Shown piece after piece: positions 1,859 to 25,009 of a stretch of DNA of 25,747 bases; positions within the stretch are counted from its first letter, which is position 1, and each line of letters begins with the position of its first letter. The DNA comes from a virus. Its lineage: Duplodnaviria > Caudoviricetes. The notes beneath the pieces were generated by a model. The model was given only the letters and a program-made list of their open reading frames with translations, had not been told where the DNA came from and did not search any database. The stretch spans positions 1-25,747 of IMG/VR virus record IMGVR_UViG_3300015370_000046; one strand, 5' to 3'. Position numbers and translations under genes: made by a program.

Positions 1859-3409
1859 TCACGTACTCTTCATTCGTTTGAGGAGATGGGGGATCGTGAA
1901 AGCTGTAAGGATGTGCGGCGTCTCCCCCGAACTGGTGCGCGTGATATCCAACTGCACCCCGCGCCCGTCTACATTCAAACTGACGTGCCCCTGCGACAAT
2001 GAGGTGTCCGACAGGTAGGACTCATCCAAGCGGAACCCCACATCAAGAAGATCCCCAGAGACCCCCATGGACAGGGTCTTCTGCACTGGTGTTTGCCCAC
2101 CCAGAGTCGTGGCGGCGATGTTGAAGTCAATATTAGCGGTGACCTCACCGTCAATAATCACCTCGCGAGTAGCAACGATCCCCGGGTAGCCAAAGTTCAT
2201 AAATCCAGTCTGAATCTGATATCGAATGGCCACCCCGTTATCGGTCAGGCCGGAGTCTGTATTGCTCGTCCCGAAAGCCTCATAAACGTACCCATCCAAG
2301 CCCCCGAAGAGCGTTCGATCCAGAAGGCTGGAATCCCGCCAGTTACAGCCACAGTTGAACTGCGTGGCGGAGGAAGATAACCCCCTCGGGAAGATGCTCC
2401 AGGCGTCAAGCTGATCCTGCCACACCATTACTGCATCGTGATGTGCCGAACCCCCCTCACTCACCAGAAACATCACCTCAGTCCAGGGGGAGCCACGCTC
2501 TACCGCCTGGATCTGATAACGACGAGACTGGTTCAAGCTATCCCAGTAATCTTGAACCTCTGGCGTGAGGAGCTTGACTCGCATGTTGGGATCAATGCGG
2601 TTGAGCCCCTTGGCTCCAGCGTAGTAGGTGTACCCGTCCTTGGTGAAGATCGACCCCTTGCTCACACACCCATCTGCTCCTGCAATGGGGAGGGCCCGCC
2701 AAGTAGCCCCTTCGTGAGGCTGATACTCCAGCATGTAGACGACGTGCTCGTAGAAAAGGATCACAACGTTCTGCGAGTGCAGCGTCATCCCTACAGCTTT
2801 ACTACGCCTCTGGGTGTCGATCTTCCCACCATTGGGGAAATCCCAGGTCCCGTAAGCCGTGTGATAAAGCGTGTAGTCATCCAAAGCCAGAATGTGACCG
2901 TGATGCTCGATCATATCCGCCGGACTGAAGTTCCCCTCGGGAACAAGCCCCAGGTCGGAGATTGGAACGGCCGACTGCCCATTGCGCACGGCAAACGGAA
3001 TATTGGTGCCATCCGCTCCAAATAACCAGTTATACGACCCGTCGGTGAAGTTCCCCCAACGGATATGCTTGTTCTCCCCACTGGCGATAGTTGCCGTCCC
3101 AGTAACATTGGACCAGGCATCAACTACCCGCAGCATCAGTGCTCCGCCGGCTACAGCGTAGAGATCGCGAGTGATACCCCACTCATCCATATACAGGGCC
3201 TGCACTGGAGCACTGCCGTTCACCTGGGCTAAGACATAGGGTTTGTATCCCCTACGGGAGAGCAGGCGAGCCCGGCCGATAACGTGGTAGTTCCGAAGAC
3301 GATTAACTTTGCAGGCCCGTCCACCATACACAGACTGGTCCGTCAGGGCGGAGCGGTCGTCTTCACCCAAAACACGATCAATGATGTGTGGACGGCGGAC
3401 GGTCGCCAT
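1859..3409 (-). CDS. Tail nozzle / head-stabilisation protein (P22 gp10 / T7 gp12-like beta-propeller)
   Basis: 516 aa, beta-rich, with GCVSKGSI...YYAGAKG (GCxxxxS motif) and a C-terminal IQTGFMNFG segment. It lies between the adaptor and ejection genes. Confidence 0.7.
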   Translation of the reverse strand: MATVRRPHIIDRVLGEDDRSALTDQSVYGGRACKVNRLRNYHVIGRARLLSRRGYKPYVLAQVNGSAPVQALYMDEWGITRDLYAVAGGALMLRVVDAWSNVTGTATIASGENKHIRWGNFTDGSYNWLFGADGTNIPFAVRNGQSAVPISDLGLVPEGNFSPADMIEHHGHILALDDYTLYHTAYGTWDFPNGGKIDTQRRSKAVGMTLHSQNVVILFYEHVVYMLEYQPHEGATWRALPIAGADGCVSKGSIFTKDGYTYYAGAKGLNRIDPNMRVKLLTPEVQDYWDSLNQSRRYQIQAVERGSPWTEVMFLVSEGGSAHHDAVMVWQDQLDAWSIFPRGLSSSATQFNCGCNWRDSSLLDRTLFGGLDGYVYEAFGTSNTDSGLTDNGVAIRYQIQTGFMNFGYPGIVATREVIIDGEVTANIDFNIAATTLGGQTPVQKTLSMGVSGDLLDVGFRLDESYLSDTSLSQGHVSLNVDGRGVQLDITRTSSGETPHILTAFTIPHLLKRMKST

Positions 3410-3410
3410 G

Positions 3411-3674
3411 CTACCTCTTGAACAGCCTCATCACCAGGGGGGCCGTAGCCTGGAGGGCCTGGAAGGACTGCTCAACCAACTTCTCCACCTCAACCTGGGT
3501 CCAGCTCTTCCCCCCGGGAGAAGACTCAGAGCGGGCATTGTCGACGGTGCTGTACACGTCCTGCCACTCCTTGAAAGCACTACGCAGCCGCTTGGCTTTG
3601 ATGGCTCCTATGAGCGCCACAGCGCCTCCAATGACCATCTGCCATGTCACTGCCAGGCCGAATATCTCCACCAT
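3411..3674 (-). CDS. Small membrane protein, holin-like
   Basis: Likely start is ATG 3674 after a GGAG RBS. N-terminal TM segment (IFGLAVTWQMVIGGAVALIGAI) followed by KAKR and an amphipathic tail with SPGGKSWT. Confidence 0.45.
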   Translation of the reverse strand: MVEIFGLAVTWQMVIGGAVALIGAIKAKRLRSAFKEWQDVYSTVDNARSESSPGGKSWTQVEVEKLVEQSFQALQATAPLVMRLFKR

Positions 3675-3679
3675 GCTAT

Positions 3680-4378
3680 CTATCTCCTGTAGACATTCCC
3701 CCCCCAACTGGGGGACTGGATGGGCTCCTCCTCGCGGGGAGCATGATCGTAGGCTCGCATTTCCACCTCATGGCGCTGCACCCACTGGTTCACCAGCAGT
3801 CCAATGGCGTTGTCGTCTTCCTGGTGCGCACCGATAATCTTGGCCAGATCAATCACATACTCCTGGAGATCATCATACATCGCCAGATCTGCCGTGGTAT
3901 CTGACAGATCCTCCCCCCGGAAGTAGTACCCCTTCAGGGTGGGATTGGCTGTAACGAAGGTGGTGTCAGGCTTCTTACCTACGATGATCGCCTGGCCCAT
4001 CTCTGTGATATACTGCGGGCTCCCCCCACTAGCTGTAGAATCCTTCCAAGATGCCCCACCGAGGAACCTGTCAATCCTGCCAATGCTCTCCCTCCAAACC
4101 AAGGACGTATCGCCGTATCGGAAAGAGTTCCCGTCGATGCGAAGTGGCCGCGTCAATGCAGCCGCCGTCCAGATTGACGAGGTATAAGGGTAGCGGTAGG
4201 TGCCGGGCGTCAGGGTCAACTCCAGCTCGTTCTTCCAACACTCGAAGTCGAGCCGCTGAATCCCTCGGATAGCCCTGAAGATCCACCGGTTGACGGTGAG
4301 AGCCTCTGCCGTGAGGGAGGTCTCCTTGTGTAGCTCTTCCGCTACATGGGGGCGAATGTCGTCTATCGAGAAGGCCAT
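3680..4378 (-). CDS. Head-tail adaptor / connector protein
   Basis: 232 aa with helical N- and C-termini and a central LTLTPGTYRYP beta region. Positioned between capsid and nozzle genes. Confidence 0.6.
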   Translation of the reverse strand: MAFSIDDIRPHVAEELHKETSLTAEALTVNRWIFRAIRGIQRLDFECWKNELELTLTPGTYRYPYTSSIWTAAALTRPLRIDGNSFRYGDTSLVWRESIGRIDRFLGGASWKDSTASGGSPQYITEMGQAIIVGKKPDTTFVTANPTLKGYYFRGEDLSDTTADLAMYDDLQEYVIDLAKIIGAHQEDDNAIGLLVNQWVQRHEVEMRAYDHAPREEEPIQSPSWGGNVYRR

Positions 4379-4387
4379 GGAGCCTCT

Positions 4388-4732
4388 CTATTTCTTGGTG
4401 GGCCGGCGGGAAACCTGATCAGTGACCTGGGGGGGGATGAGACCCAACTCCTGCAGGCGTGCGTCAACAACAGCGATGATCTGCTCTCGCTCGCTCTTCA
4501 GGATGGCATCGGACGGTACGATAAACGCCCTGCGCGAGCCCCACATACCGACGTTGCCGTTGTTCAGAAGCTCCTGCTGGTCCTCAGACGACGGGACCTC
4601 GGCAATCTTGCGCCCCCCAAAGTCCGGGTTGGCAGCAAAGCTCACTCGGCCCAGGCGCAACGTGCTAACGCCCACCTTGTCACTGTAGCCGGCCTCGCCG
4701 GGCTTGAGGATGTACTCTACGAGGTATGCCAT
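4388..4732 (-). CDS. Hypothetical protein (virion morphogenesis region)
   Basis: 114 aa, ATG start, fills the gap in the minus-strand operon. Confidence 0.65.
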   Translation of the reverse strand: MAYLVEYILKPGEAGYSDKVGVSTLRLGRVSFAANPDFGGRKIAEVPSSEDQQELLNNGNVGMWGSRRAFIVPSDAILKSEREQIIAVVDARLQELGLIPPQVTDQVSRRPTKK

Positions 4733-4751: not shown

Positions 4752-4780
4752 GGGGGAGGAGCGATCTCCCCTCCTCCCCC
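4752..4780 (-). terminator. GC-rich hairpin, probable partial terminator or mRNA stabiliser after the capsid and decoration genes
   Basis: GGGGGAGGAG-N9-CTCCTCCCCC is a perfect 10-bp stem. It is followed only by TATTC on the minus strand, a weak U-tract. Confidence 0.6.
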
Positions 4781-4812
4781 AGAGGTCGTTCTGCTATCCA
4801 GCCAGGAGCAGG

Positions 4813-5427
4813 CTACCGAGGATAGGAGATCGTTGCAATAGCGGTGACGTATGTGGTGTCACCAGCCGACGCGTCAGGATCAACAATCAGCCGCACGAAC
4901 TGGCCGTTGGCAATCATGTACTGGTCGATCTGACTGTTGATCGTCATACCAACCTGTGTAGCATGGCCGACGGAGGTGTCAGGGAAAGCCCCGGCGCGGG
5001 GAAGCATAACCCACATCGTGGAATCCTTGGCCGTATTGTCCACCCCGCCGATCTGACTGCCTTTCGTATTGTCGACGGAGTAGCTCTTGAGGATGGTGTG
5101 CCAGGCTGCTGTCTTCAGGGCTGACTGGCCAACCTGCGCATAGATGGTAAAGTCGCAGTCGTCCTCAATGCCCTGGGAGATGATCTCAACGGACACGGCC
5201 TCCGCACCAGCAATGTTCATCGCGTAGGTCGTGTCGCTGAGGGTACCAGCAACCAACGTGTCCACCCTCACCCCACCGGAGCCGAGAATGGCACCCGAAG
5301 AGAACCAGCGCATGGTGTCGGTCTTGACGTAGCCGATCGACCCACGGTAATCGGTAATAGCGCCGTCGCCAAAGGACGCGCCGACGAGCAGGGCCAGGAT
5401 GGCGGTTACAACAATCAGCTTCTTCAT
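4813..5427 (-). CDS. Signal-peptide-bearing beta-rich protein in the capsid decoration slot
   Basis: MKKLIVVTAILALLVGASFG|D is a classic Sec/SPI signal. Strong GGGGAGG RBS, start 15 nt after the capsid stop. Mature region is G/T/S/A/V-rich and jelly-roll-like. Confidence 0.7.
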   Translation of the reverse strand: MKKLIVVTAILALLVGASFGDGAITDYRGSIGYVKTDTMRWFSSGAILGSGGVRVDTLVAGTLSDTTYAMNIAGAEAVSVEIISQGIEDDCDFTIYAQVGQSALKTAAWHTILKSYSVDNTKGSQIGGVDNTAKDSTMWVMLPRAGAFPDTSVGHATQVGMTINSQIDQYMIANGQFVRLIVDPDASAGDTTYVTAIATISYPR

Positions 5428-5442
5428 GGTGTCATCCTCCCC

Positions 5443-6561
5443 TTAGACTTCTGTGGCAGTGTAGATGCCCCAGATGGCCATCGACTGGTTGAAGGTGGTC
5501 CCCGAGTTGGGGGCCCAGTCGAAGCGAGACTGCCCGTAGATCTCCTTGATGCCGAGACCGAAGATGTCCTCGTAGTCGTCTTCCTTGCGGCGGACGAGGC
5601 GCGGACGCGAAGTGACGCCCTCTGCCACTGCGTCGGCACCCAGAAGGATGCACCGGCGGGCGTTGGGGTTGGTAGCACTGGCACGGATGCGCGAGTACTT
5701 GTACACGTAGATCCCGGCATACTCGAAGTCGGCCGCCCCAAACAGAGGGTTGTCCTTCTTGTCGCGAGGATACGCGTTCTGCAACGAAGCCTGGATCTCA
5801 CTGTTCGAGATCAGATCGTTGTAGTTGAACGGATGCACCAGGAGGACGTACCCCTCCATGCCCTTGAAGGTGACCGGACTAATATTCTTGGTCTCCACAA
5901 AGGAGCACATCCGGCGAAGCTCGGCAGGAGACAGCCGATCGCTGGTCCCCAAGGAAGCGTCGTCAGTGGCCGCACCGGCCCACTTCTGATTCGCCGTCGG
6001 GGGAGAAGACGCGGTCTGCGAAAGGCCTGCCTTGACGTGGCCAGACCACTTGTAATAGATGGCGTCGAGGGTGTTCTCCTCACGCTCCGCTGCCGACCAG
6101 TCGGTCAGCAACCCACCGAGCTGCGCAGTAACCTTGAACTCGGTCCTCAGATCCTGAATCTCCGGGGTCACCGTGCTCGTTGCGTGCTTGGACTGCTCGG
6201 TAAATGCGATGCAGTTGTGCAGTGCAGCCAGTTCCTCCTGATCAACCATCGTGTTCGAGGAACTAACACCATACGTTCTGGCGTTGAGACTGCGCTCACC
6301 GGTAGCCTGCGTCCGGTTTCTGGTCAACTGCATCATCAGGCCAACGCGCACTTCCTGTGCCCGCTTGCCATTCAGCGCTTCGAGACTGCGAATGGGCAGT
6401 CCAGCGCGCCGCTCAAAAGCCGACTCGCCCCCAATGTCCTTCCCGACCATGTTCTTCTTGTTGAAGAAGAGCTTGTCCTGCGTCTGACGATGAAGAACAG
6501 ACGAGAACGCGATACGAGTCAGGTTATTGGTAAGGGCTGTGCCGGTAACAAGAGATGCCAC
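5443..6561 (-). CDS. Major capsid protein (HK97 fold, N4-gp56/DUF4043-like)
   Basis: 372 aa with YVLLVHP..YNDL, NPLFG...YAGIYVY, CILLGADAVA and EDDYEDIFGLGI..IYG motifs. Directly follows the scaffold gene. Confidence 0.88.
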   Translation of the reverse strand: MASLVTGTALTNNLTRIAFSSVLHRQTQDKLFFNKKNMVGKDIGGESAFERRAGLPIRSLEALNGKRAQEVRVGLMMQLTRNRTQATGERSLNARTYGVSSSNTMVDQEELAALHNCIAFTEQSKHATSTVTPEIQDLRTEFKVTAQLGGLLTDWSAAEREENTLDAIYYKWSGHVKAGLSQTASSPPTANQKWAGAATDDASLGTSDRLSPAELRRMCSFVETKNISPVTFKGMEGYVLLVHPFNYNDLISNSEIQASLQNAYPRDKKDNPLFGAADFEYAGIYVYKYSRIRASATNPNARRCILLGADAVAEGVTSRPRLVRRKEDDYEDIFGLGIKEIYGQSRFDWAPNSGTTFNQSMAIWGIYTATEV

Positions 6562-6571
6562 TATCGTTACC

Positions 6572-7507
6572 TCACATTGGTGCCCCGCTCCCCATCAAAC
6601 TCACCTGGCGATTGACACCCTCTTCGATGATCGATCCCATCACATCGGCTCCGACCTTCTCAGCAAAGTCCCACGCCGCCCGGCTATTCTCCGGTAAAGC
6701 AGAGTAGTAGTCGAACATCTCCCCGGCAGACGCGTCCTGTTTGGGCACGCCTCCTTCTCCAAGGATAACCGCCGTCGCCTTGCCGTTGCTTCCACGCTCA
6801 CCGAGTCCCTTGTTGAACCCCTGGGTGCGGATATTCTCCTCGTGGTACTCCCTACGAGAAAGTCGATCCGCATCCTCCGCAGCCTTCGTGGTGAACTGAA
6901 AAACCCCGGCCTCACGATTGAACGCACCATACCCCAGCTGTTCGATCCGAAGACCGTCCATTTGCGTACGCAGGCGCGTCTTGTCGTCCCCGACGATGTC
7001 GTTCTCCTTGCAGTAGGCGTCGAGTATCTGTTCGTTGGCAGAGACAGCCTGGTTGCGAGCGACCTTACCCGTAGCGCGGGTCTCGGCCATCTTCACCCCC
7101 TCTGTCATCTCTGTCTTTAGGCCCCTGTTCTCCTTCCGCAACTCCGCCATCTCCGCGCGCAAAGAGGCCAACTCAGAAGCAGTGCTCGACGCGAACTTCT
7201 CCGGGTCGTCAAGAGGATTGCCCAGGTCCACAACGCGCGGAACCTCCGCAGTCTTCCTGCTTCCACCTCGAAGTTCTGCCACATCTGCTCTCAAAGCTGC
7301 CACTTCTCGCTCCGTTTCTGACATGGTTGCGGCTCGTTTATCAAGAGCCTCTTTTTCGCGCTTCAACTCTGCGGCTCGGGCCTCCTGCGTAGCTTGCCAC
7401 TTCTCGTTACGCTTGAAGTCCTGCCAAGCCTTGCGCGGTACCTGCTCGCCGTCGACATCCATCAGGTCGTCAGGGCCGGATTCTCCGGGTGTACGAACTT
7501 TGGCCAT
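6572..7507 (-). CDS. Capsid scaffolding protein
   Basis: 311 aa, charged coiled-coil, with N-terminal VDGEQVP...W...QEARAAELKRE pattern. AAGGAG RBS. Immediately upstream of the capsid gene. Confidence 0.72.
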   Translation of the reverse strand: MAKVRTPGESGPDDLMDVDGEQVPRKAWQDFKRNEKWQATQEARAAELKREKEALDKRAATMSETEREVAALRADVAELRGGSRKTAEVPRVVDLGNPLDDPEKFASSTASELASLRAEMAELRKENRGLKTEMTEGVKMAETRATGKVARNQAVSANEQILDAYCKENDIVGDDKTRLRTQMDGLRIEQLGYGAFNREAGVFQFTTKAAEDADRLSRREYHEENIRTQGFNKGLGERGSNGKATAVILGEGGVPKQDASAGEMFDYYSALPENSRAAWDFAEKVGADVMGSIIEEGVNRQVSLMGSGAPM

Positions 7508-7612
7508 CGTGTCTCTTCTCCTTCAGTGTGCCGGCAGGGGCCCTGGGGCGTACCGACAGGGGCTGATGTTGGATGGGGTTTGAGGCTGGCGCTGCCTCGC
7601 TCCCCGCGTGAA

Positions 7613-7957
7613 CTATGCCCGCCCTGGCCTTCGCATCTGCGCCCTATTCTGGCGCTGCGGTAGACCTCGAACGGGGTTGCGCTGCTGCTGTTGCGTCTGA
7701 CCCACCGGAGCCTGCATCCCCATCTCTGGGGCTGGTGCCCCGCCGAGCTTCGGCGTCACTGGCCTTCGACCCATAGAGGCCGCCCCGGCCTGGGGGTTCT
7801 GCATCCCGGCCTGCCCCGCCATCCCAGTGGACGCCTGCTGGCCCGGGCCCTGAGCCTGCATACGGTACTTCCCCTGGTAGCGACGGCTGTAACTCAGCCC
7901 GAGGGACTCTGTTGCCCCGGAGTCTGAGCCCCGGTCACTTCTGGATTCACGCGGCAT
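7613..7957 (-). CDS. Small basic Q/G/M/R-rich disordered protein
   Basis: 114 aa, tightly packed in the operon, ends MRRPGRA. Confidence 0.55.
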   Translation of the reverse strand: MPRESRSDRGSDSGATESLGLSYSRRYQGKYRMQAQGPGQQASTGMAGQAGMQNPQAGAASMGRRPVTPKLGGAPAPEMGMQAPVGQTQQQQRNPVRGLPQRQNRAQMRRPGRA

Positions 7958-7960
7958 GAT

Positions 7961-8437
7961 CTATCTCTTCGCTGGCGCACGGCCAGCCTTACGATTGGCG
8001 GTATACCTGGTCTGCCGGGCGGTCCCGTATCGCGCCTCTGCCTCCCGATTCATGGTCTGAAGGCGCTCTACTACGCGAGGGTATGTATCCTTGTTCATTC
8101 TCGTGTTTGATTGAACACCCCTCAGACGGTCCAAGGCCTCTTGCTCTTCCCTGCCAGGACGCTGGCTGTCAAGCGCCTCCATTCTCGTCTTGTTCTCTGC
8201 CCTACCCGCAGCCACACGAGCAGGCTCCCCTGCATCCCACTCTCGCTGAGTTGGCCGAAGAGCGTCCTTGTTCACAGGCCCCTTTGTCTCAGCCGCTCTT
8301 TTATTCTGGGCCCGACTGCCTACTCCGTAAGTAGCCCGGTAGGGACTGCGAGAGCCAGAGCCATACCCACCACCGCCTCCACCTCCCTCTCCCCCTACGG
8401 AGCCTCCACGGCCTTCTTTACTCGGTGCACGTGCCAT
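7961..8437 (-). CDS. Small basic G/R-rich protein
   Basis: 158 aa, GAGGAG RBS region, poly-Gly N-terminus, ends RKAGRAPAKR. Confidence 0.65.
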   Translation of the reverse strand: MARAPSKEGRGGSVGGEGGGGGGGYGSGSRSPYRATYGVGSRAQNKRAAETKGPVNKDALRPTQREWDAGEPARVAAGRAENKTRMEALDSQRPGREEQEALDRLRGVQSNTRMNKDTYPRVVERLQTMNREAEARYGTARQTRYTANRKAGRAPAKR

Positions 8438-8448
8438 ACCCCATCTCC

Positions 8449-8712
8449 TCAGTTGGCTCGTCCGTTACGCGACTCCTGACGATTCGCTGCCCGCTGCCTA
8501 TCCCGTCTCCCCCCTTTTCGAAACTCCTCCTGTCTCCCCATCTGCAGCTGTCGCAGCATCTCTTCCTCACGCAGGGAGTCCTGCCCCTTCTCCTTCTCCA
8601 GAGGAGCTATCCCCTTGCTTTTTCCTGAAGGAGGACCCACCAGGCCGGAGTTGTACTTTTTCGCCCTATCGTAATCTTTCGTTCCCGCTTTTCCGTATCG
8701 TTTGATCGGCAT
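8449..8712 (-). CDS. Small basic protein, paralog of 9161..9373
   Basis: MPIKRYGKAGTKDYDRAKKYNSGLVGPPSG...NGRAN, with a GAGGA RBS. Confidence 0.75.
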   Translation of the reverse strand: MPIKRYGKAGTKDYDRAKKYNSGLVGPPSGKSKGIAPLEKEKGQDSLREEEMLRQLQMGRQEEFRKGGRRDRQRAANRQESRNGRAN

Positions 8713-8739
8713 CTGATTCCTCGGCTTCCTGGCTAGTGT

Positions 8740-9159
8740 TTACCTGCTACTCCGAACTGAGTTGCGAAAGGCACTCTTGCGCATCGTCCTACGCCCCCTA
8801 CGTGCCTTATTTTCCGGATTCGGAACACGCGCCCTCGAGCCACGAGGCTTGGCCGTAGCCGTCTGCCTGCGCGCGACATCCTCGGGATTCACCGCACTGG
8901 CAGTACGGGGCGACGGTACACGGGCCACATCCTCTGGATTGGCCGCGCGAGGTGGCATCTTACGGGCCGCATCTTCTGGATTGACCTTGGGCCCGACATT
9001 GCGACTGTTGTAGCTGTTGCTACTTCGAGATGCAGCCGCCTCCTGGGCGTTATAGTCGGTGCGCGAGGCGGTCCTGCGCGTCGCTTCCTTACGCCTCGCG
9101 TCCTCCTGCACCTTCTTCTCGTTCGTAGCAGCTACGCTCTTTGACCTCGTCAGTGCCAC
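8740..9159 (-). CDS. Basic R/A/S-rich protein with four NPExxAR repeats
   Basis: Likely start is GTG 9159, right after the upstream TAA with GGAGG before it. Repeats are NPEDAAR, NPEDVAR, NPEDVAR and NPENKAR. Confidence 0.7.
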   Translation of the reverse strand: MALTRSKSVAATNEKKVQEDARRKEATRRTASRTDYNAQEAAASRSSNSYNSRNVGPKVNPEDAARKMPPRAANPEDVARVPSPRTASAVNPEDVARRQTATAKPRGSRARVPNPENKARRGRRTMRKSAFRNSVRSSR

Positions 9160-9160
9160 T

Positions 9161-9373
9161 TTAGTTGGCCCTCCCACCGCGATACTGCTGGCGCTTGCCT
9201 TTTCGCTGTATCGCACGGGCTCCTAAGCGCCCCGCCTTGCGAGCCCCCTCCGTAAACGCGGCCTTATCATCGCCACTGGACACTCCACTCTCAGGGCCCA
9301 CATTGCCCGCGTTATAGGCCTTCGCCTGAGTATACTCCTTGGTGCCTTCTTTCCCGTATCGCTTGATTGCCAT
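9161..9373 (-). CDS. Small basic protein, paralog of 8449..8712
   Basis: MAIKRYGKEGTKEYTQAKAYNAGNVGPESG...GGRAN, with a GAGGA RBS. Confidence 0.75.
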   Translation of the reverse strand: MAIKRYGKEGTKEYTQAKAYNAGNVGPESGVSSGDDKAAFTEGARKAGRLGARAIQRKGKRQQYRGGRAN

Positions 9374-10116: not shown

Positions 10117-11559
10117 CTATCGGCTCTTCCGCGCCCTCAGCGTAACAGCACCCTTGGTCGCAGCACTCCCCTTGACGTAGGCGACGATGAAGCCACCCTT
10201 CACCGGGAGATAGGCCCTCGACAGGTCATGCCGATCGATCGGGTGATTGGCGTGAAGCTTGCTCGTGGCCGCCACGTAATAGCCGTCCCCCAGGTCGCGG
10301 GTGTCCTCGATAGAGGGATACACCCTCAACTCCCAGAAGGAAGTGTCTGTGGCAGCAAGGTGCCGGAACTCCACACTCTCCATCCAACCCGCCGTCTGCT
10401 TCCCTACCATGAGCTGTCCAATGTCGTAGGTCAGCTTGCCGGCGGGGATACTGTCCAGAAGTGAGCTTCGGGGGGAAGTGGCAGAGGAGTAGATCAAGAG
10501 CGGATGGACCTCTTCCGTGTCCATGTAGGCCGACTCAAACGCGTGAAAACGCCGCGAGGTTACTTTGGCTAGTGGCATGGTGACCGTGAGTGAAGTATCA
10601 ACACGAATGGAGTCAGTGCCGATGCCTACAATGTGAACCCGCGCCTCATCTATAGAGTCACCCCGTGCGTCGAGGAAGTCGTGAATCTCAGACCTCAAGG
10701 TCGTTGAGTCCCCCATCAAGTAGAACTCATCGATATAGCCGTTGAACAACTTCGCTCCCCGGATACCGAAGATGTCCAGGGTGTCTACCGTGAGAGCCGA
10801 GGACGCATTGGCGAAGACCGTAGACACAACCACCCGATTATCCACCTCAAGACGCATGGTATTAGCTGAAACCCGGGTGGTAATCAGGTGGGGAGTGCCG
10901 TCGTAGAGATCCACCGCTACGGAGACGGAATCCACCGATGTGTCGTAGTCATCTGTGATCACGAAGAAAGGGTAGCCCAACTGGTTGAAGCCCACCCGCA
11001 CCTCGTCGGGAGACTCATACAGAGACCAGACGATCTGCGTTGTGCCAAGCCCTGGATTGCCAGCGCTCTTGCCCGTCGCCCACACGGACTGCGCCCACCC
11101 TCCTGTAGCCAGCCTCAAATCGGCATCATCTACCACCCGAGAGTAGCCCGTCTGGGGGGAGGCCCCGTTTCCAAAGATCCCAGCGGCTGCCTTGTAAGTG
11201 ATGTCCCTCTGACCTACATCCTTCAAGAGGACAGAGCCAGTCTCATCCCCGGAGTCAGCGCACAGGAAGATGGCCACAATCGTCCCCACACCAGCGTTGG
11301 CACCGCGCAGAGAGTCGACAAAGCTCTCCCCAGCATAGGCCACTCGGATGGCAGTGTCAGCCGCCATCTGGGTGAAGCCGGTGTCAGCGGTAACTGGCTC
11401 CCAGGAAGTGCCAATACCCACGTCCTCGACGTGGATATACCAGCCGTCCTCAGCCCCGCGAGGATTGTCAGCCTGAGTCAAGCTGGCCAGCAGGATGCCG
11501 AAAAAGATCGCGGAGCCCATCAGGGGCCAGATCAGATGCGAGAGGATTGAACGCTTCAT
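10117..11559 (-). CDS. Secreted protein with a central LamG/concanavalin-A-like domain
   Basis: N-terminal signal ending in ..LASLTQA|D. LamG motifs DLYDGTPHLITTRVSANTMRLEVDN and FNGYIDEFYL. ATGA-coupled to the portal stop. Confidence 0.7.
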   Translation of the reverse strand: MKRSILSHLIWPLMGSAIFFGILLASLTQADNPRGAEDGWYIHVEDVGIGTSWEPVTADTGFTQMAADTAIRVAYAGESFVDSLRGANAGVGTIVAIFLCADSGDETGSVLLKDVGQRDITYKAAAGIFGNGASPQTGYSRVVDDADLRLATGGWAQSVWATGKSAGNPGLGTTQIVWSLYESPDEVRVGFNQLGYPFFVITDDYDTSVDSVSVAVDLYDGTPHLITTRVSANTMRLEVDNRVVVSTVFANASSALTVDTLDIFGIRGAKLFNGYIDEFYLMGDSTTLRSEIHDFLDARGDSIDEARVHIVGIGTDSIRVDTSLTVTMPLAKVTSRRFHAFESAYMDTEEVHPLLIYSSATSPRSSLLDSIPAGKLTYDIGQLMVGKQTAGWMESVEFRHLAATDTSFWELRVYPSIEDTRDLGDGYYVAATSKLHANHPIDRHDLSRAYLPVKGGFIVAYVKGSAATKGAVTLRARKSR

Positions 11560-13655: not shown

Positions 13656-14114
13656 CTATTGCAAAAAAGCGACGCGAGCCAGAAGCTCATCGCCGCTTTT
13701 CGTTTCCAGTACCATGCGGAAGGACTCAATCCCCTCACGTACCAGGTAGTCCCGCACCGCCTGGGCTCGCTTGAACGCTAAGGCATTGATATTGGAGTAA
13801 CCGGTTATTCTGATGAGTACGGAGGGGTTGGAGAGAAGGTACTCGGCCTGCTGGGTCAACTCGCCGGCATAAGCATCCGAAATGTTGTGCCTGGCGTAGT
13901 TGAACGGCACGTCTGGGAACGGCCACATCGGCGTCCCGTAACTCTCCCCACCGCGATCAACGAACAGGTCGTCAATGTAGTATGGGTCAGATGCGGGCTC
14001 GTTCTGTGGGGCGTACGCAGAGGCTGAAGGCTCCTGCGCGGGGGGCGTCGAGGTGCAATACTGCCCGAGCACCGCAAGAGCGCACGTACTGAGTATCAAG
14101 GATCTGTAGGACAT
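13656..14114 (-). CDS. Exported OmpA-C/Pal-like protein, possible lipoprotein
   Basis: MSYRSLILSTCALAVLGQYC leader, then VPFNYARHNI...AEYLLSNPSVLIRITGYS...LAFKRAQAVRDYLVREGIESFRM. Start could instead be GTG 14156. Confidence 0.8.
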   Translation of the reverse strand: MSYRSLILSTCALAVLGQYCTSTPPAQEPSASAYAPQNEPASDPYYIDDLFVDRGGESYGTPMWPFPDVPFNYARHNISDAYAGELTQQAEYLLSNPSVLIRITGYSNINALAFKRAQAVRDYLVREGIESFRMVLETKSGDELLARVAFLQ

Positions 14115-18629: not shown

Positions 18630-19210
18630 AGACTCGCCCACTGATGATACCTCTCCATGACCTCGTCATACAGCTTATGAGCAATCTGTCCCCGCTCCAG
18701 GTCTGGCGCAGGATTCACAAACTTCCGATAGACATGCTCCCCCTTGTTCAGGAAGGGCAGCTCCACCGTGGGCTCTACACAGAGAGCACTGCATAACCTG
18801 TTATACTCAGCGGAGAAAGGGTTGTCCATCCTCTCCAGTAAGTAAGGAGACCCGAACTGCTGCAAAAGCCTGTTGGTCTTCAGCCACCCCCGGGCGTGGG
18901 TAGTCAGCCTGTCGTCTCCCCCGAACTGCTGCTTGAAAAAGGCACCATCATGGGGGTTGTTGAAGAACTGCGCAGCTGATGGAATAGTTCTTCGCGGATC
19001 TCTGAGTAGCCATAGGCAGGCACCCATGTCCAAGCGCACCCTGATGGCTGTCTTCAAGTCACCTGCAGTGTCGATGGTCTTGAAGGGGAAGCCCACCACC
19101 ACATCCGACGGGCCCTGGATGGTCTCGTGCCTGGCCTGCAGGCCTGTTGCCTTGAGCAGGGCGGTGAGATAGGTCGACCCACTGCGGGGGTAGCAGAGGA
19201 TGGAGATCAC
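18626..19210 (-). CDS. Sulfotransferase-family (P-loop) protein
   Basis: 5'-PSB motif YPRSGSTYL, the conserved HE, and 3'-PB motif LLRDPRRTIPS. Confidence 0.8.
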   Translation of the reverse strand: MISILCYPRSGSTYLTALLKATGLQARHETIQGPSDVVVGFPFKTIDTAGDLKTAIRVRLDMGACLWLLRDPRRTIPSAAQFFNNPHDGAFFKQQFGGDDRLTTHARGWLKTNRLLQQFGSPYLLERMDNPFSAEYNRLCSALCVEPTVELPFLNKGEHVYRKFVNPAPDLERGQIAHKLYDEVMERYHQWASL

Positions 19211-19746
19211 TGCGTCCTCCTCAGATTGTCCTTATAGACCTCATTCCTCGGGTCTAACCGACTGGCCGTTAGGTAGCACTCTCTCGCTCTATCCATCTCT
19301 CCCCCCGCCGCATAGGCCACCCCCAGATTACACCAGGCTTGCGCGAAGTTGGGCCTGGCCATAAGGATCACCTCGTAGATCTCGATAGCTTTCTCGCGCC
19401 TCCCAGGAGCTCCTGCCTGGGCTTGGTAGAGGTAGGTGCCCGCCAGGTTGGCTGCAGCGTCCAAGTCTGCAGGATTGATCCTTAGGGCCTGCAGGAAGGC
19501 AGCCTCAGCCACCACCAGGTCGTCGTGCTGCAGACGTATAGCCCCGACATTATTGAGCGCCTTGGTGGCTAGGCTCCGGTCCCCCCTCGACTTAGCCAGC
19601 GCAAAACACCTGCGATACCACACCTCGGCCATCTCCCAGTGCAGGTCTTGAGTGGACTGCTGAATGGAGGTGAAGCCAGCAAGAGAGATGGAGGGGCCCT
19701 CCCACTCTGCGTGGACAGGTAGGGCCAGAAGGAGGAGAAGAAGCAT
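19207..19746 (-). CDS. Secreted TPR-repeat protein
   Basis: Signal MLLLLLLALPVHA|E. TPR motifs ALNNVGAI..AFLQALRINP and AWCNLGVAYAAGGEMDRARECYLTASRLDP. Confidence 0.85.
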   Translation of the reverse strand: MLLLLLLALPVHAEWEGPSISLAGFTSIQQSTQDLHWEMAEVWYRRCFALAKSRGDRSLATKALNNVGAIRLQHDDLVVAEAAFLQALRINPADLDAAANLAGTYLYQAQAGAPGRREKAIEIYEVILMARPNFAQAWCNLGVAYAAGGEMDRARECYLTASRLDPRNEVYKDNLRRTQ

Positions 19747-21602: not shown

Positions 21603-21822
21603 CACTGCCTCTCCTCCTCGGATCATCCTCATCCAGGGTGGCCGCGTCGTCGCCCAGCAAGACGCGGACGTCAAACACCAGGCCCGCGACCTGCGCCAGG
21701 ATGCCAAACCCTGCGTTGTTCACCAGCAGCAGCCGATTGATCTGCCGCAGTTTCTCCAGCACCTCGCATGCGTCGGAGTCTTGGAACTCGCGGATAGCGT
21801 CGAAACACTTTCTTGGAATCAT
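21586..21822 (-). CDS. Hypothetical protein
   Basis: 78 aa, AAGGAG RBS, ATGA-coupled. Confidence 0.55.
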   Translation of the reverse strand: MIPRKCFDAIREFQDSDACEVLEKLRQINRLLLVNNAGFGILAQVAGLVFDVRVLLGDDAATLDEDDPRRRGSDDTDM

Positions 21823-22388
21823 CTCAGCGTCTCCTTCAGTTGCTCGAATTCACTCTTCCGCGGCGGCACCTCGACACGGATCTGCCATTCACGTCTTTTG
21901 CAGTGGCGACAGATACGCTCGCGCTCCAAGGGGGCATAGGCAATAGCGGACGGATAGAGCTCAGAGTAGACCCAGTTGTGATACAAGGGGTAGGAAGTCC
22001 CGACGCACATGCTGTCCACCCTGCTCCGCGAAGCAATGGGCTTGGGCGGCAGGGGCCAGCACCCCAGGTTGGCACTGTCCACCTTCACCGTCTCCCACTC
22101 GTAGGCCGGCTCCGTTGTGGTGAACTCGTCATACGTCCCAATAGAAGCGTTACCCTCGTCGTCAAACGTGATAAGGGGCGTGCCGTCCAATCGATAGATA
22201 TTGGGAAACGGCAACTTCATGGTCCTAATCTCCCTCACGGCTTCGGGTTTGCGGATGGTCAGCACCGAGTCCATCGCGTTCCACCGCAGGATCTCCTCGT
22301 TATCCCAGTAAGTGGGGCCGTAGTCGGTGGCGGAGAGCGTGTCCTGCCCCCAGGCAGGCAGCGCCAATAGCAGTAGTAGGTAGATCAT
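21819..22388 (-). CDS. Secreted hypothetical protein
   Basis: Signal MIYLLLLLALPAWG|Q, GAGGAGGAG RBS, coupled to the terS stop, C-terminal RICRHC. Confidence 0.7.
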   Translation of the reverse strand: MIYLLLLLALPAWGQDTLSATDYGPTYWDNEEILRWNAMDSVLTIRKPEAVREIRTMKLPFPNIYRLDGTPLITFDDEGNASIGTYDEFTTTEPAYEWETVKVDSANLGCWPLPPKPIASRSRVDSMCVGTSYPLYHNWVYSELYPSAIAYAPLERERICRHCKRREWQIRVEVPPRKSEFEQLKETLR

Positions 22389-23641: not shown

Positions 23642-23718
23642 TGGTGGGCGTGGTAGGGATCGAACCTACTGCCTCCTGTATATCAGACAGGCGCTCTAAC
23701 CTGTTGAGCTACACGCCC
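23642..23718 (-). tRNA. tRNA-Ile (anticodon GAU), 77 nt, CCA encoded
   Basis: Cloverleaf with acceptor GGGCGTG/CACGCCC, D stem GCTC/GAGC, anticodon arm CCTGT-CTGATAT-ACAGG, T arm GTAGG-TTCGATC-CCTAC, and ACCA end. Confidence 0.95.
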
Positions 23719-24688: not shown

Positions 24689-25009
24689 TTATACCTCCCT
24701 GAGGTCCGCTTCGATATGCACATGATCCGACTCCGCCACTACATCGTAGTCGGGACCGAGGTAATATTGCAGGTCGGTCACCAGTTGAGTTACCTGCCCT
24801 GGAGACAGAAACCAGATCCTGATGTCGATAGCCAGGCCCGCGTTATGCAGGGAGGTGGGGCGGTCCTCGTGAGAGTCGGTCCCGCAGGTGATGACAAACG
24901 TGAATTCAGCGGGCGAGACGGCATGTCGGTAGCACTCCTCGATGATGAAGAACTTGCTTGTGATGGGCTCCTTGAGCCCTCGGCAGTCGGCGCCCTGCTT
25001 AACCCTCAT
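24689..25009 (-). CDS. Peptidase M15 / Hedgehog-DD-peptidase fold protein, probable endolysin
   Basis: Zn-ligand pattern in VITCGTD.H...SLHNAGLAIDIR and DVVAESDHVHIEAD. Confidence 0.82.
   Translation of the reverse strand: MRVKQGADCRGLKEPITSKFFIIEECYRHAVSPAEFTFVITCGTDSHEDRPTSLHNAGLAIDIRIWFLSPGQVTQLVTDLQYYLGPDYDVVAESDHVHIEADLREV

Follow-up and report, generated by a model that had tools for sequence, protein, structure and literature searches.

A capsid-adjacent gene family of podophage-type viruses encodes predicted exported, sequon-rich jelly-roll proteins that may coat the virion

The gene directly after the major capsid gene in a podophage-type virus (4813..5427, minus strand) encodes a 204-aa protein, which carries a predicted signal peptide, a predicted jelly-roll fold and six sites of the kind O-glycosylated in Bacteroidota, and is a candidate cement or decoration protein. 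We propose, with a probability of about 0.5, that this protein is a cement which is exported via Sec, likely O-glycosylated in an FCB-type periplasm, and bound to finished heads at lysis. Judged from the sequence, export and cleavage near D21 are highly probable and glycosylation at the sequons is probable, while binding to expanded heads at capsomer interfaces is slightly favoured.

The window, by which we mean the whole stretch of 25,747 nucleotides that was analysed, is a linear virus record that is 42% complete. A late module of podophage type occupies its minus strand, including a terminase-like gene, a P22-like portal gene, a scaffold-like gene, the major capsid gene (5443..6561, minus strand; PF13252, phrog_334) and an SU10-type adaptor gene, as well as a 516-aa gene in nozzle position, which would be labelled a nozzle by analogy with the gene order in phage KLEP18-1. 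Near-identical pieces were found in groundwater metagenomes of two studies besides a possible source run, none of the data sets listed as carrying them being RNA, and reads mapped to the window revealed scattered base differences only and no joints. Between the scaffold and portal regions lies a run of short, very basic, low-complexity ORFs (7613-9373), two of which start alike (8449-8712 and 9161-9373), and these are possibly DNA-condensing or internal head proteins. A long protein with QFAxxLGL-type repeats of ~44 aa, which is common to the relative L002, occupies the ejection-protein position (1-1857), and a small hydrophobic ORF after the adaptor gene (3411-3707) is holin-like by eye. As well, the window possesses a tRNA-Ile(GAT) gene (23642-23718), which could be used for host linking, and a 106-aa ORF (24689-25009) with what we take, by eye, to be an M15-like peptidase motif, although it has no significant family match.

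The ORF of the exported protein begins 15 nt past the capsid stop, and a ribosome-binding site, GGGGAGGA (5435..5442, minus strand), adjoins the capsid stop codon, with similar junctions in other loci. Residues 1-20 (5368..5427, minus strand) form a predicted Sec/SPI signal peptide, for which a rule-based test of n-region charge, h-region and small residues at -3/-1 places the cut at 20/21, between SFG and DG. Both features had been put forward in an original prediction made from the window's letters, and both were borne out. The five strict D-[ST]-[AILMTV] sequons, D37-T-M (5311..5319), D56-T-L (5254..5262), D65-T-T (5227..5235), D135-S-T (5017..5025) and D190-T-T (4852..4860), and the extended sequon D150-T-S (4972..4980) all lie on the minus strand, and D-[ST] is found at these sites in 31/35, 30/36, 37/37, 33/36, 36/36 and 33/36 rows of the family alignment, respectively. 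The sixth site, DTS, matches the extended motif given in the accessible text of PMC8729774. At window position 5301 the base is not the one in the run X1 contig, and the encoded residue 43 departs from that of database protein P0001 (Ser vs Ala); most homologues have Ala there.

The counts stated in the original prediction (16 Asp, six D-[ST] and five strict sites) were reproduced, while the enrichment it had suggested proved marginal in the 204-aa protein alone, where six D-[ST] stand against a shuffle mean of 3.0 (p 0.063) and five strict sites against a mean of 1.5 (p 0.014, as one of 38 ORFs tested). Strict-sequon p-values below 0.05 occurred in 6/38 window ORFs, three of which are leaderless; the three smallest p-values all belong to leader-bearing proteins, and two other leader-bearing window proteins have zero sequons. 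The claim that the neighbouring capsid protein lacks D-[ST] was also confirmed (0 among 18 Asp, 2.9 expected), but the lack is not specific, as 27 capsid homologues are also poor in N-[ST] and D-x-[ST], and the idea that the capsid protein avoids sequons was therefore rejected.

A word search (4 proteins) and a profile search (36 representatives) gave a family of 38 distinct homologues, which share 24-65% identity. A rule-based Sec/SPI leader is kept in 32/33 full-length homologues, the exception having Pro at +1, and neither a lipobox nor a later transmembrane segment was detected in any of the 33. The six D-[ST] sites are conserved in 83-100% of rows, although the alignment has zero invariant columns. 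Sequence searches of Pfam, PHROGs, NCBIfam and the PDB returned zero families for the protein or its alignment, and by this measure the family is new to these four collections; INPHARED contained no relative of the exported protein and no cultured relative.

Scans with a capsid profile gave 69 loci, of which 6 duplicates were dropped and 63 examined; five of these end too early and 58 are informative, many of them being one phage sampled repeatedly. In 21 examined loci, which encode 13 distinct proteins if that of the window is counted, the exported gene is the next one after the capsid gene, while in 37/58 informative loci the capsid gene is followed by a leaderless gene of ~115 aa, which in the window is the 114-aa gene past the hairpin described below (4388..4732, minus strand). 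The family profile hit 25 proteins in 70 loci, all directly after the capsid gene or, in two cases, as a tandem paralogue, in a sample that was mostly gathered via the capsid gene and thus under-samples family members elsewhere in genomes; a scan with the exported family itself gave one locus, likewise capsid-adjacent. Accordingly, leader, sequons and capsid-adjacent position were all kept when the homologues were checked, and the computational checks suggested by the original prediction, as far as they were run, all turned out favourable or neutral. Two loci (L009, 8116-8694 and 8763-9356; also L026) carry tandem jelly-roll paralogues separated by the hairpin, as if one form were major and the other minor.

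A G/C-rich hairpin (4752..4780, minus strand) closes the capsid unit, and when the 81-nt piece was shuffled, 3 of 200 sequences folded as well. It folds as originally predicted and its position is conserved, but a U-tract is missing, and no classical intrinsic terminator was called here by the terminator scan. Of the loci examined, 8/8 with the exported gene have the hairpin 3' of it (3' of the first paralogue in the case of L009), and 9/9 without the gene have the hairpin 3' of the capsid gene. Since the exported gene lies inside this hairpin-closed unit, its expression at the level of the capsid gene is suggested. The gene is absent from many relatives and is therefore not essential to this capsid lineage; both exported families (see below for the second) are missing from four relatives, of which one is complete (54 kb) and three are partial. 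In a quick capsid tree, 10/11 gene-bearing rows fall in one clade together with the gene-less L003, and L070 lies outside. The 37-kb L003 record (with L028 and record G003; also record G004) nests in the gene-bearing capsid clade and has neither exported family nor any other credible exported gene that was seen, possibly through a host switch or loss of the whole exported set. INPHARED contains just two matches to the capsid protein, at 23-25% identity, and the post-capsid proteins of both phages are leaderless and lack profile similarity to the family. A leaderless post-capsid protein of Rhizobium phage Y1_10 contains one DTT.

A second exported and sequon-rich family is encoded after the portal gene (10117..11559, minus strand in the window; L009 3876-5327; L027 ~7350-8751; L049 2784-3566 and 3566-8146; L070 150-749), with no detectable similarity to the jelly-roll family. 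Its members range from ~260 to 1,526 aa and carry lectin-like inserts (LamG, CBM) between conserved N- and C-terminal parts, and ten members hold 106 strict sequons against 24 expected (4.35-fold). The 480-aa window protein, whose architecture was drawn from alignments, Pfam and a low-confidence Atlas model, has a lectin-like LamG middle region and is a head-fibre or spike candidate. An OmpA/Pal-like exported protein with 0 strict sequons, encoded upstream of the portal gene (13656..14114, minus strand), is present in five gene-bearing phages (the window, L009, L027, L034 and L049), its homologues having a lipobox-like Cys, and none was seen in loci without the exported gene. L034 also encodes a DUF3078 outer-membrane barrel with a signal peptide (3341-4129). 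Two further leader-bearing proteins lie outside the virion module, namely a 189-aa protein with a Cys pattern and four strict sequons (21819..22388, minus strand; p 0.0006), which has no homologue among the relatives' loci compared, and a 179-aa TPR protein without sequons (19207-19746). In a rule-based scan, credible exported genes occurred solely in gene-bearing phages, and the hits in gene-less loci seem, by our reading, to be ORFs in a wrong frame or virion proteins without a leader.

The AlphaFold2 model of the mature chain is a single jelly roll (pLDDT 82, pTM 0.79). Structural comparison returned 2,146 chains at Z of at least 2 and 20 at Z of at least 8, and the top matches are all jelly rolls, including XepA (Z 9.2) and viral capsid and receptor domains (Z 8-9). 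The BPP-1 cement Bbp16 was matched at rank 38 (Z 7.6, rmsd 3.2, 111/140 aligned), which is within the generic range, and it is equalled or outscored by lectins, carbohydrate-binding modules and receptor domains. Hence the fold check suggested by the original prediction gave a predicted jelly roll like those of known cements, but the match to cements is only a generic one. GP4 gp1, Pam1 gp6 and A1002 gp49 were not among the best 50 structural matches listed, which excludes nothing. The nearest language-model neighbours were three viral clusters at 0.91, followed by Bbp16 (21% of members) at 0.85, and serve as a lead only. A co-fold of two capsid subunits with the mature chain scored 0.00, with the controls not folded, and speaks neither for nor against binding.

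The capsid protein offers a stronger argument. Its profile matched four sequences in the PDB, those of A1002, Pam1 and GP4 among them, and its profile relatives are entries 9vye, 26de/44ny, 8h89 and 7eel; 8h89 is presumably GP4, which agrees with the 369-aa, 9-chain description. According to the accessible parts of PMC13730344 and PMC9698820, the capsid surfaces of A1002, Pam1 and GP4 bear beta-sandwich cements with jelly-roll or Ig-like folds, and in A1002 and GP4 the cement gene is numbered next to the capsid gene; the same arrangement is described for PhiXacm4-11, where gp26 is the cement by the capsid gene. Because the relatives of the present capsid protein carry jelly-roll cements encoded by the neighbouring gene, the lineage argument is stronger than the fold match.

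The podophage cements A1002 gp49, GP4 gp1, Pam1 gp6, PhiXacm4-11 gp26 and BPP-1 Bbp16 (PMC13730344, PMC9698820, bioRxiv 10.64898/2026.02.16.706137, as far as accessible) thus have in common with the present protein a capsid-adjacent gene and a single beta-sandwich, which is predicted in the present case, and the present capsid protein is a profile relative of those of A1002, GP4 and Pam1. In contrast, the virion location of the solved cements is proven and that of the present protein proposed, and no sequence similarity between them was detected. The accessible structural descriptions give modelled spans of 2-156 for GP4 gp1, 4-143 for A1002 gp49 and 1-148 for Xacm4-11 gp26, that is, 140-160 aa from near residue 1, compared with a mature chain of 184 aa here. 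Being modelled from near residue 1, these three cements have no cleaved leader, and the leader is a departure in the present family; as the leaderless, cytoplasmic character of cements is lacking here (leader in 32/33), the protein was filed as cement-like and not as a member. In the A1002 fibre gp41, the first ~30 residues are missing in the map, and the authors suggest possible cleavage (PMC13730344, accessible text); a signal peptide in gp41, if present, would be a possible precedent.

A leader and sequons by themselves require no capsid role, and it is possible, though on the unlikely side, that the protein is instead an abundant late envelope factor, exported and glycosylated, which blocks superinfection, weakens the surface layer or times lysis. 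The gene-bearing phages add an OmpA/Pal-like protein and in one case a DUF3078 barrel, while gene-less loci have no credible exported gene, and XepA and carbohydrate-binding modules are among the top fold matches. Action on the host envelope is also what publications favour for exported late viral proteins: in the accessible text, a role in egress was proposed for secreted sheath-like proteins of archaeal tailed viruses (PMC11576556), while P. gingivalis phages have Q-rule proteins that were read as outer-membrane modifiers (PMC10367356). However, the slot between capsid gene and hairpin is fixed in all hits and is the cement slot in the solved relatives. Moreover, features of lipoproteins or T9SS cargo are absent (lipobox 0/33), there is no transmembrane anchor, and the window protein has no Pfam or NCBIfam match, T9SS tail included, leaving no visible hold on the envelope.

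Across the 38 homologues, the sequon excess goes beyond composition, which is the part of the original enrichment claim that stood. There are 195 strict sequons where shuffles give 47 (4.1-fold), compared with 0.91-fold for [ST]D, 0.75-fold for E[ST], 1.13-fold for N[ST] and 1.18-fold for N-x-[ST]. N-glycosylation was rejected, N-x-[ST] reaching 1.18-fold in the first family and 0.74-fold in the second. The excess is specific to D, as N, E and G do not show it, and depends on D preceding S/T, with S and T interchanging at the D-[ST] sites (188 T, 68 S), and extra, non-conserved sites also emerge in the same form. Over both exported families, the third residue is never P (14.5 expected) or Y (13.1 expected), and R, H, W and K are rare. 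The homologues share descent, so that z-values overstate independence, and it is therefore more informative that six separate sites are kept, that S and T interchange and that the third residue follows a pattern. Leaderless beta-rich virion proteins of the phages, namely nozzle-position proteins (6 and 4), fibres (5) and small proteins (7), gave strict-sequon ratios of 0.97-1.20, and among E. coli proteins from four 50-kb stretches picked for fimbrial operons, 22 fimbrial beta-sandwich proteins gave 1.27 and 44 exported proteins 1.18. Beta structure thus accounts for little of a four-fold excess when beta-rich controls reach 1.0-1.3-fold, and the excess tracks the leader across families.

In the model, five of the six sequons are found within beta strands or where these begin, where D-T-hydrophobic can be structural. 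An exported protein that joins the capsid at lysis might therefore use D-[ST]-hydrophobic as a structural or cation-binding turn-and-strand motif without any glycan, and the bin proteome described below (1.39-1.54 vs 1.18-1.27 in E. coli) does not establish a host glycosylation system. We regard this as rather improbable, since the four-fold excess recurs in two unrelated exported families and is specific to D and to order, with a third-residue bias that equals the published motif and extra sites of the same form.

In Bacteroidota, O-glycosylation was reported for exported proteins only, at the motif D-(S/T)-(A/I/L/V/M/T), extended to S/G/C/F (PMC8729774, accessible text), and the six conserved family sites match this motif. 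Predicted export and the third-residue preference are common to those substrates and the present protein, which differs in being phage-encoded and in its density of ~3 strict sites per 100 aa, which exceeds the 2.2 per 100 aa of the densest among 531 bin proteins sampled. The bin in question, a candidate host, is the one bin that holds a distant family member, on a single 6.7-kb phage contig, and it gave 95 matches to T9SS sorting domains. Such domains are an FCB-type trait. In a sample of its proteome (60 contig stretches, 0.95 of 4.9 Mb), strict sequons were enriched 1.39-fold in exported proteins and 1.54-fold in lipoproteins, against 0.93-fold in cytoplasmic proteins and 1.18-1.27-fold in E. 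coli; the tendency is the one expected of such a host, yet not clearly stronger than in E. coli. By a crude pattern, Q follows an AxA-like site in 14/33 family leaders vs 5/44 E. coli exported proteins. Q after cleavage was described for ~71% in Bacteroidetes, with a continuum elsewhere in the FCB group (PMC5837995, accessible text), and an FCB host outside core Bacteroidetes would fit. The DUF3078 barrel of L034 is a further clue to the host.

Less probable still is that the protein, freed at lysis or carried on vesicles, serves as a glycan-bearing decoy or adhesin which aids burst spread or receptor binding; a soluble periplasmic design and the lectin-like domains of the second family would agree with this, but the strict capsid-unit position would be left unexplained. 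An ordinary cement, whose N-terminus does not serve export but tethers it to a membrane or is cut off as a leader in the cytoplasm, would suit the capsid slot and the jelly-roll fold, and signal-like ends of some capsid proteins were read as cut by the prohead protease (PMC10367356, accessible text), but it is very improbable given an n/h/c layout with small -3/-1 residues in 32/33 members despite free divergence, and a sequon excess that goes with the leader across families.

Under the proposed route of export, glycosylation and late decoration, the capsid and cement genes would be transcribed late as one unit, and the coupling of the ribosome-binding site to the capsid stop together with the shared hairpin-closed unit points to co-expression at a capsid-like level. 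The product would be exported by Sec, cleaved near D21 and O-glycosylated at the sequons by the host periplasmic system. Lysis would then open the inner membrane and mix the compartments, so that the mature protein could bind finished heads, and a second component, the 480-aa post-portal protein, would follow the same route as a head fibre or spike. T4 Soc and lambda gpD are examples of decoration proteins able to attach to heads that are already finished, and late addition is therefore mechanically possible. More tentatively, and at somewhat less than even odds, we suggest an extracytoplasmic branch of virion assembly in this podophage clade, in which a cement and a lectin-tipped head fibre pass through Sec, are glycosylated by the host and are added at lysis, bringing host-type glycans at several sites per subunit, the exported set being gained and lost with the host envelope type.

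Glycosylation of mycobacteriophages modifies capsid or tail proteins in the cytoplasm. The glycosylated mycobacteriophages encode their own glycosyltransferases (PMC11256854, accessible text). A glycan-coated capsid would be alike in both systems, but here export and a host periplasmic enzyme would serve, and no phage enzyme of glycosyltransferase type was seen among the 25 window ORFs scanned. Host-type signal peptides are shared with the archaeal sheath-like proteins (PMC11576556, 159-288 aa) and the P. gingivalis Q-rule proteins (PMC10367356); however, as described in the accessible text, the former have an amyloid-like fold and the latter an unknown fold, compared with a predicted jelly roll here, and that text reports no O-glycosylation motifs and no constant place in a capsid unit combined with a cement-like fold. 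The accessible text of the crAss001 structure paper holds no passage on signal peptides or glycosylation. No description of signal-peptide-bearing, glycosylated capsid decoration proteins was found in the literature searched, mostly the main texts of open papers, and the novelty of the route might be affected by proteomics tables for phages of Bacteroidota. An export-glycosylate-decorate route is not yet shown for tailed phages.

To our knowledge, the particles of tailed phages are held to be made of cytoplasmic proteins throughout. If the proposed route is true, an exported, host-glycosylated coat would add an extracytoplasmic step to assembly and would provide a second way to glycosylated virions, for which no phage enzyme is needed. 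Such a coat might also influence how stable the particles are, how they adsorb to mineral or cell surfaces and how hosts recognise them. The family offers a convenient test object, with a 184-aa chain that is well folded in the model, six fixed sites, natural relatives without the gene, and a second family. Finally, the signature of sequons plus leader may indicate the hosts of uncultured phages and may show how far Bacteroidota-type glycosylation reaches in the FCB group.
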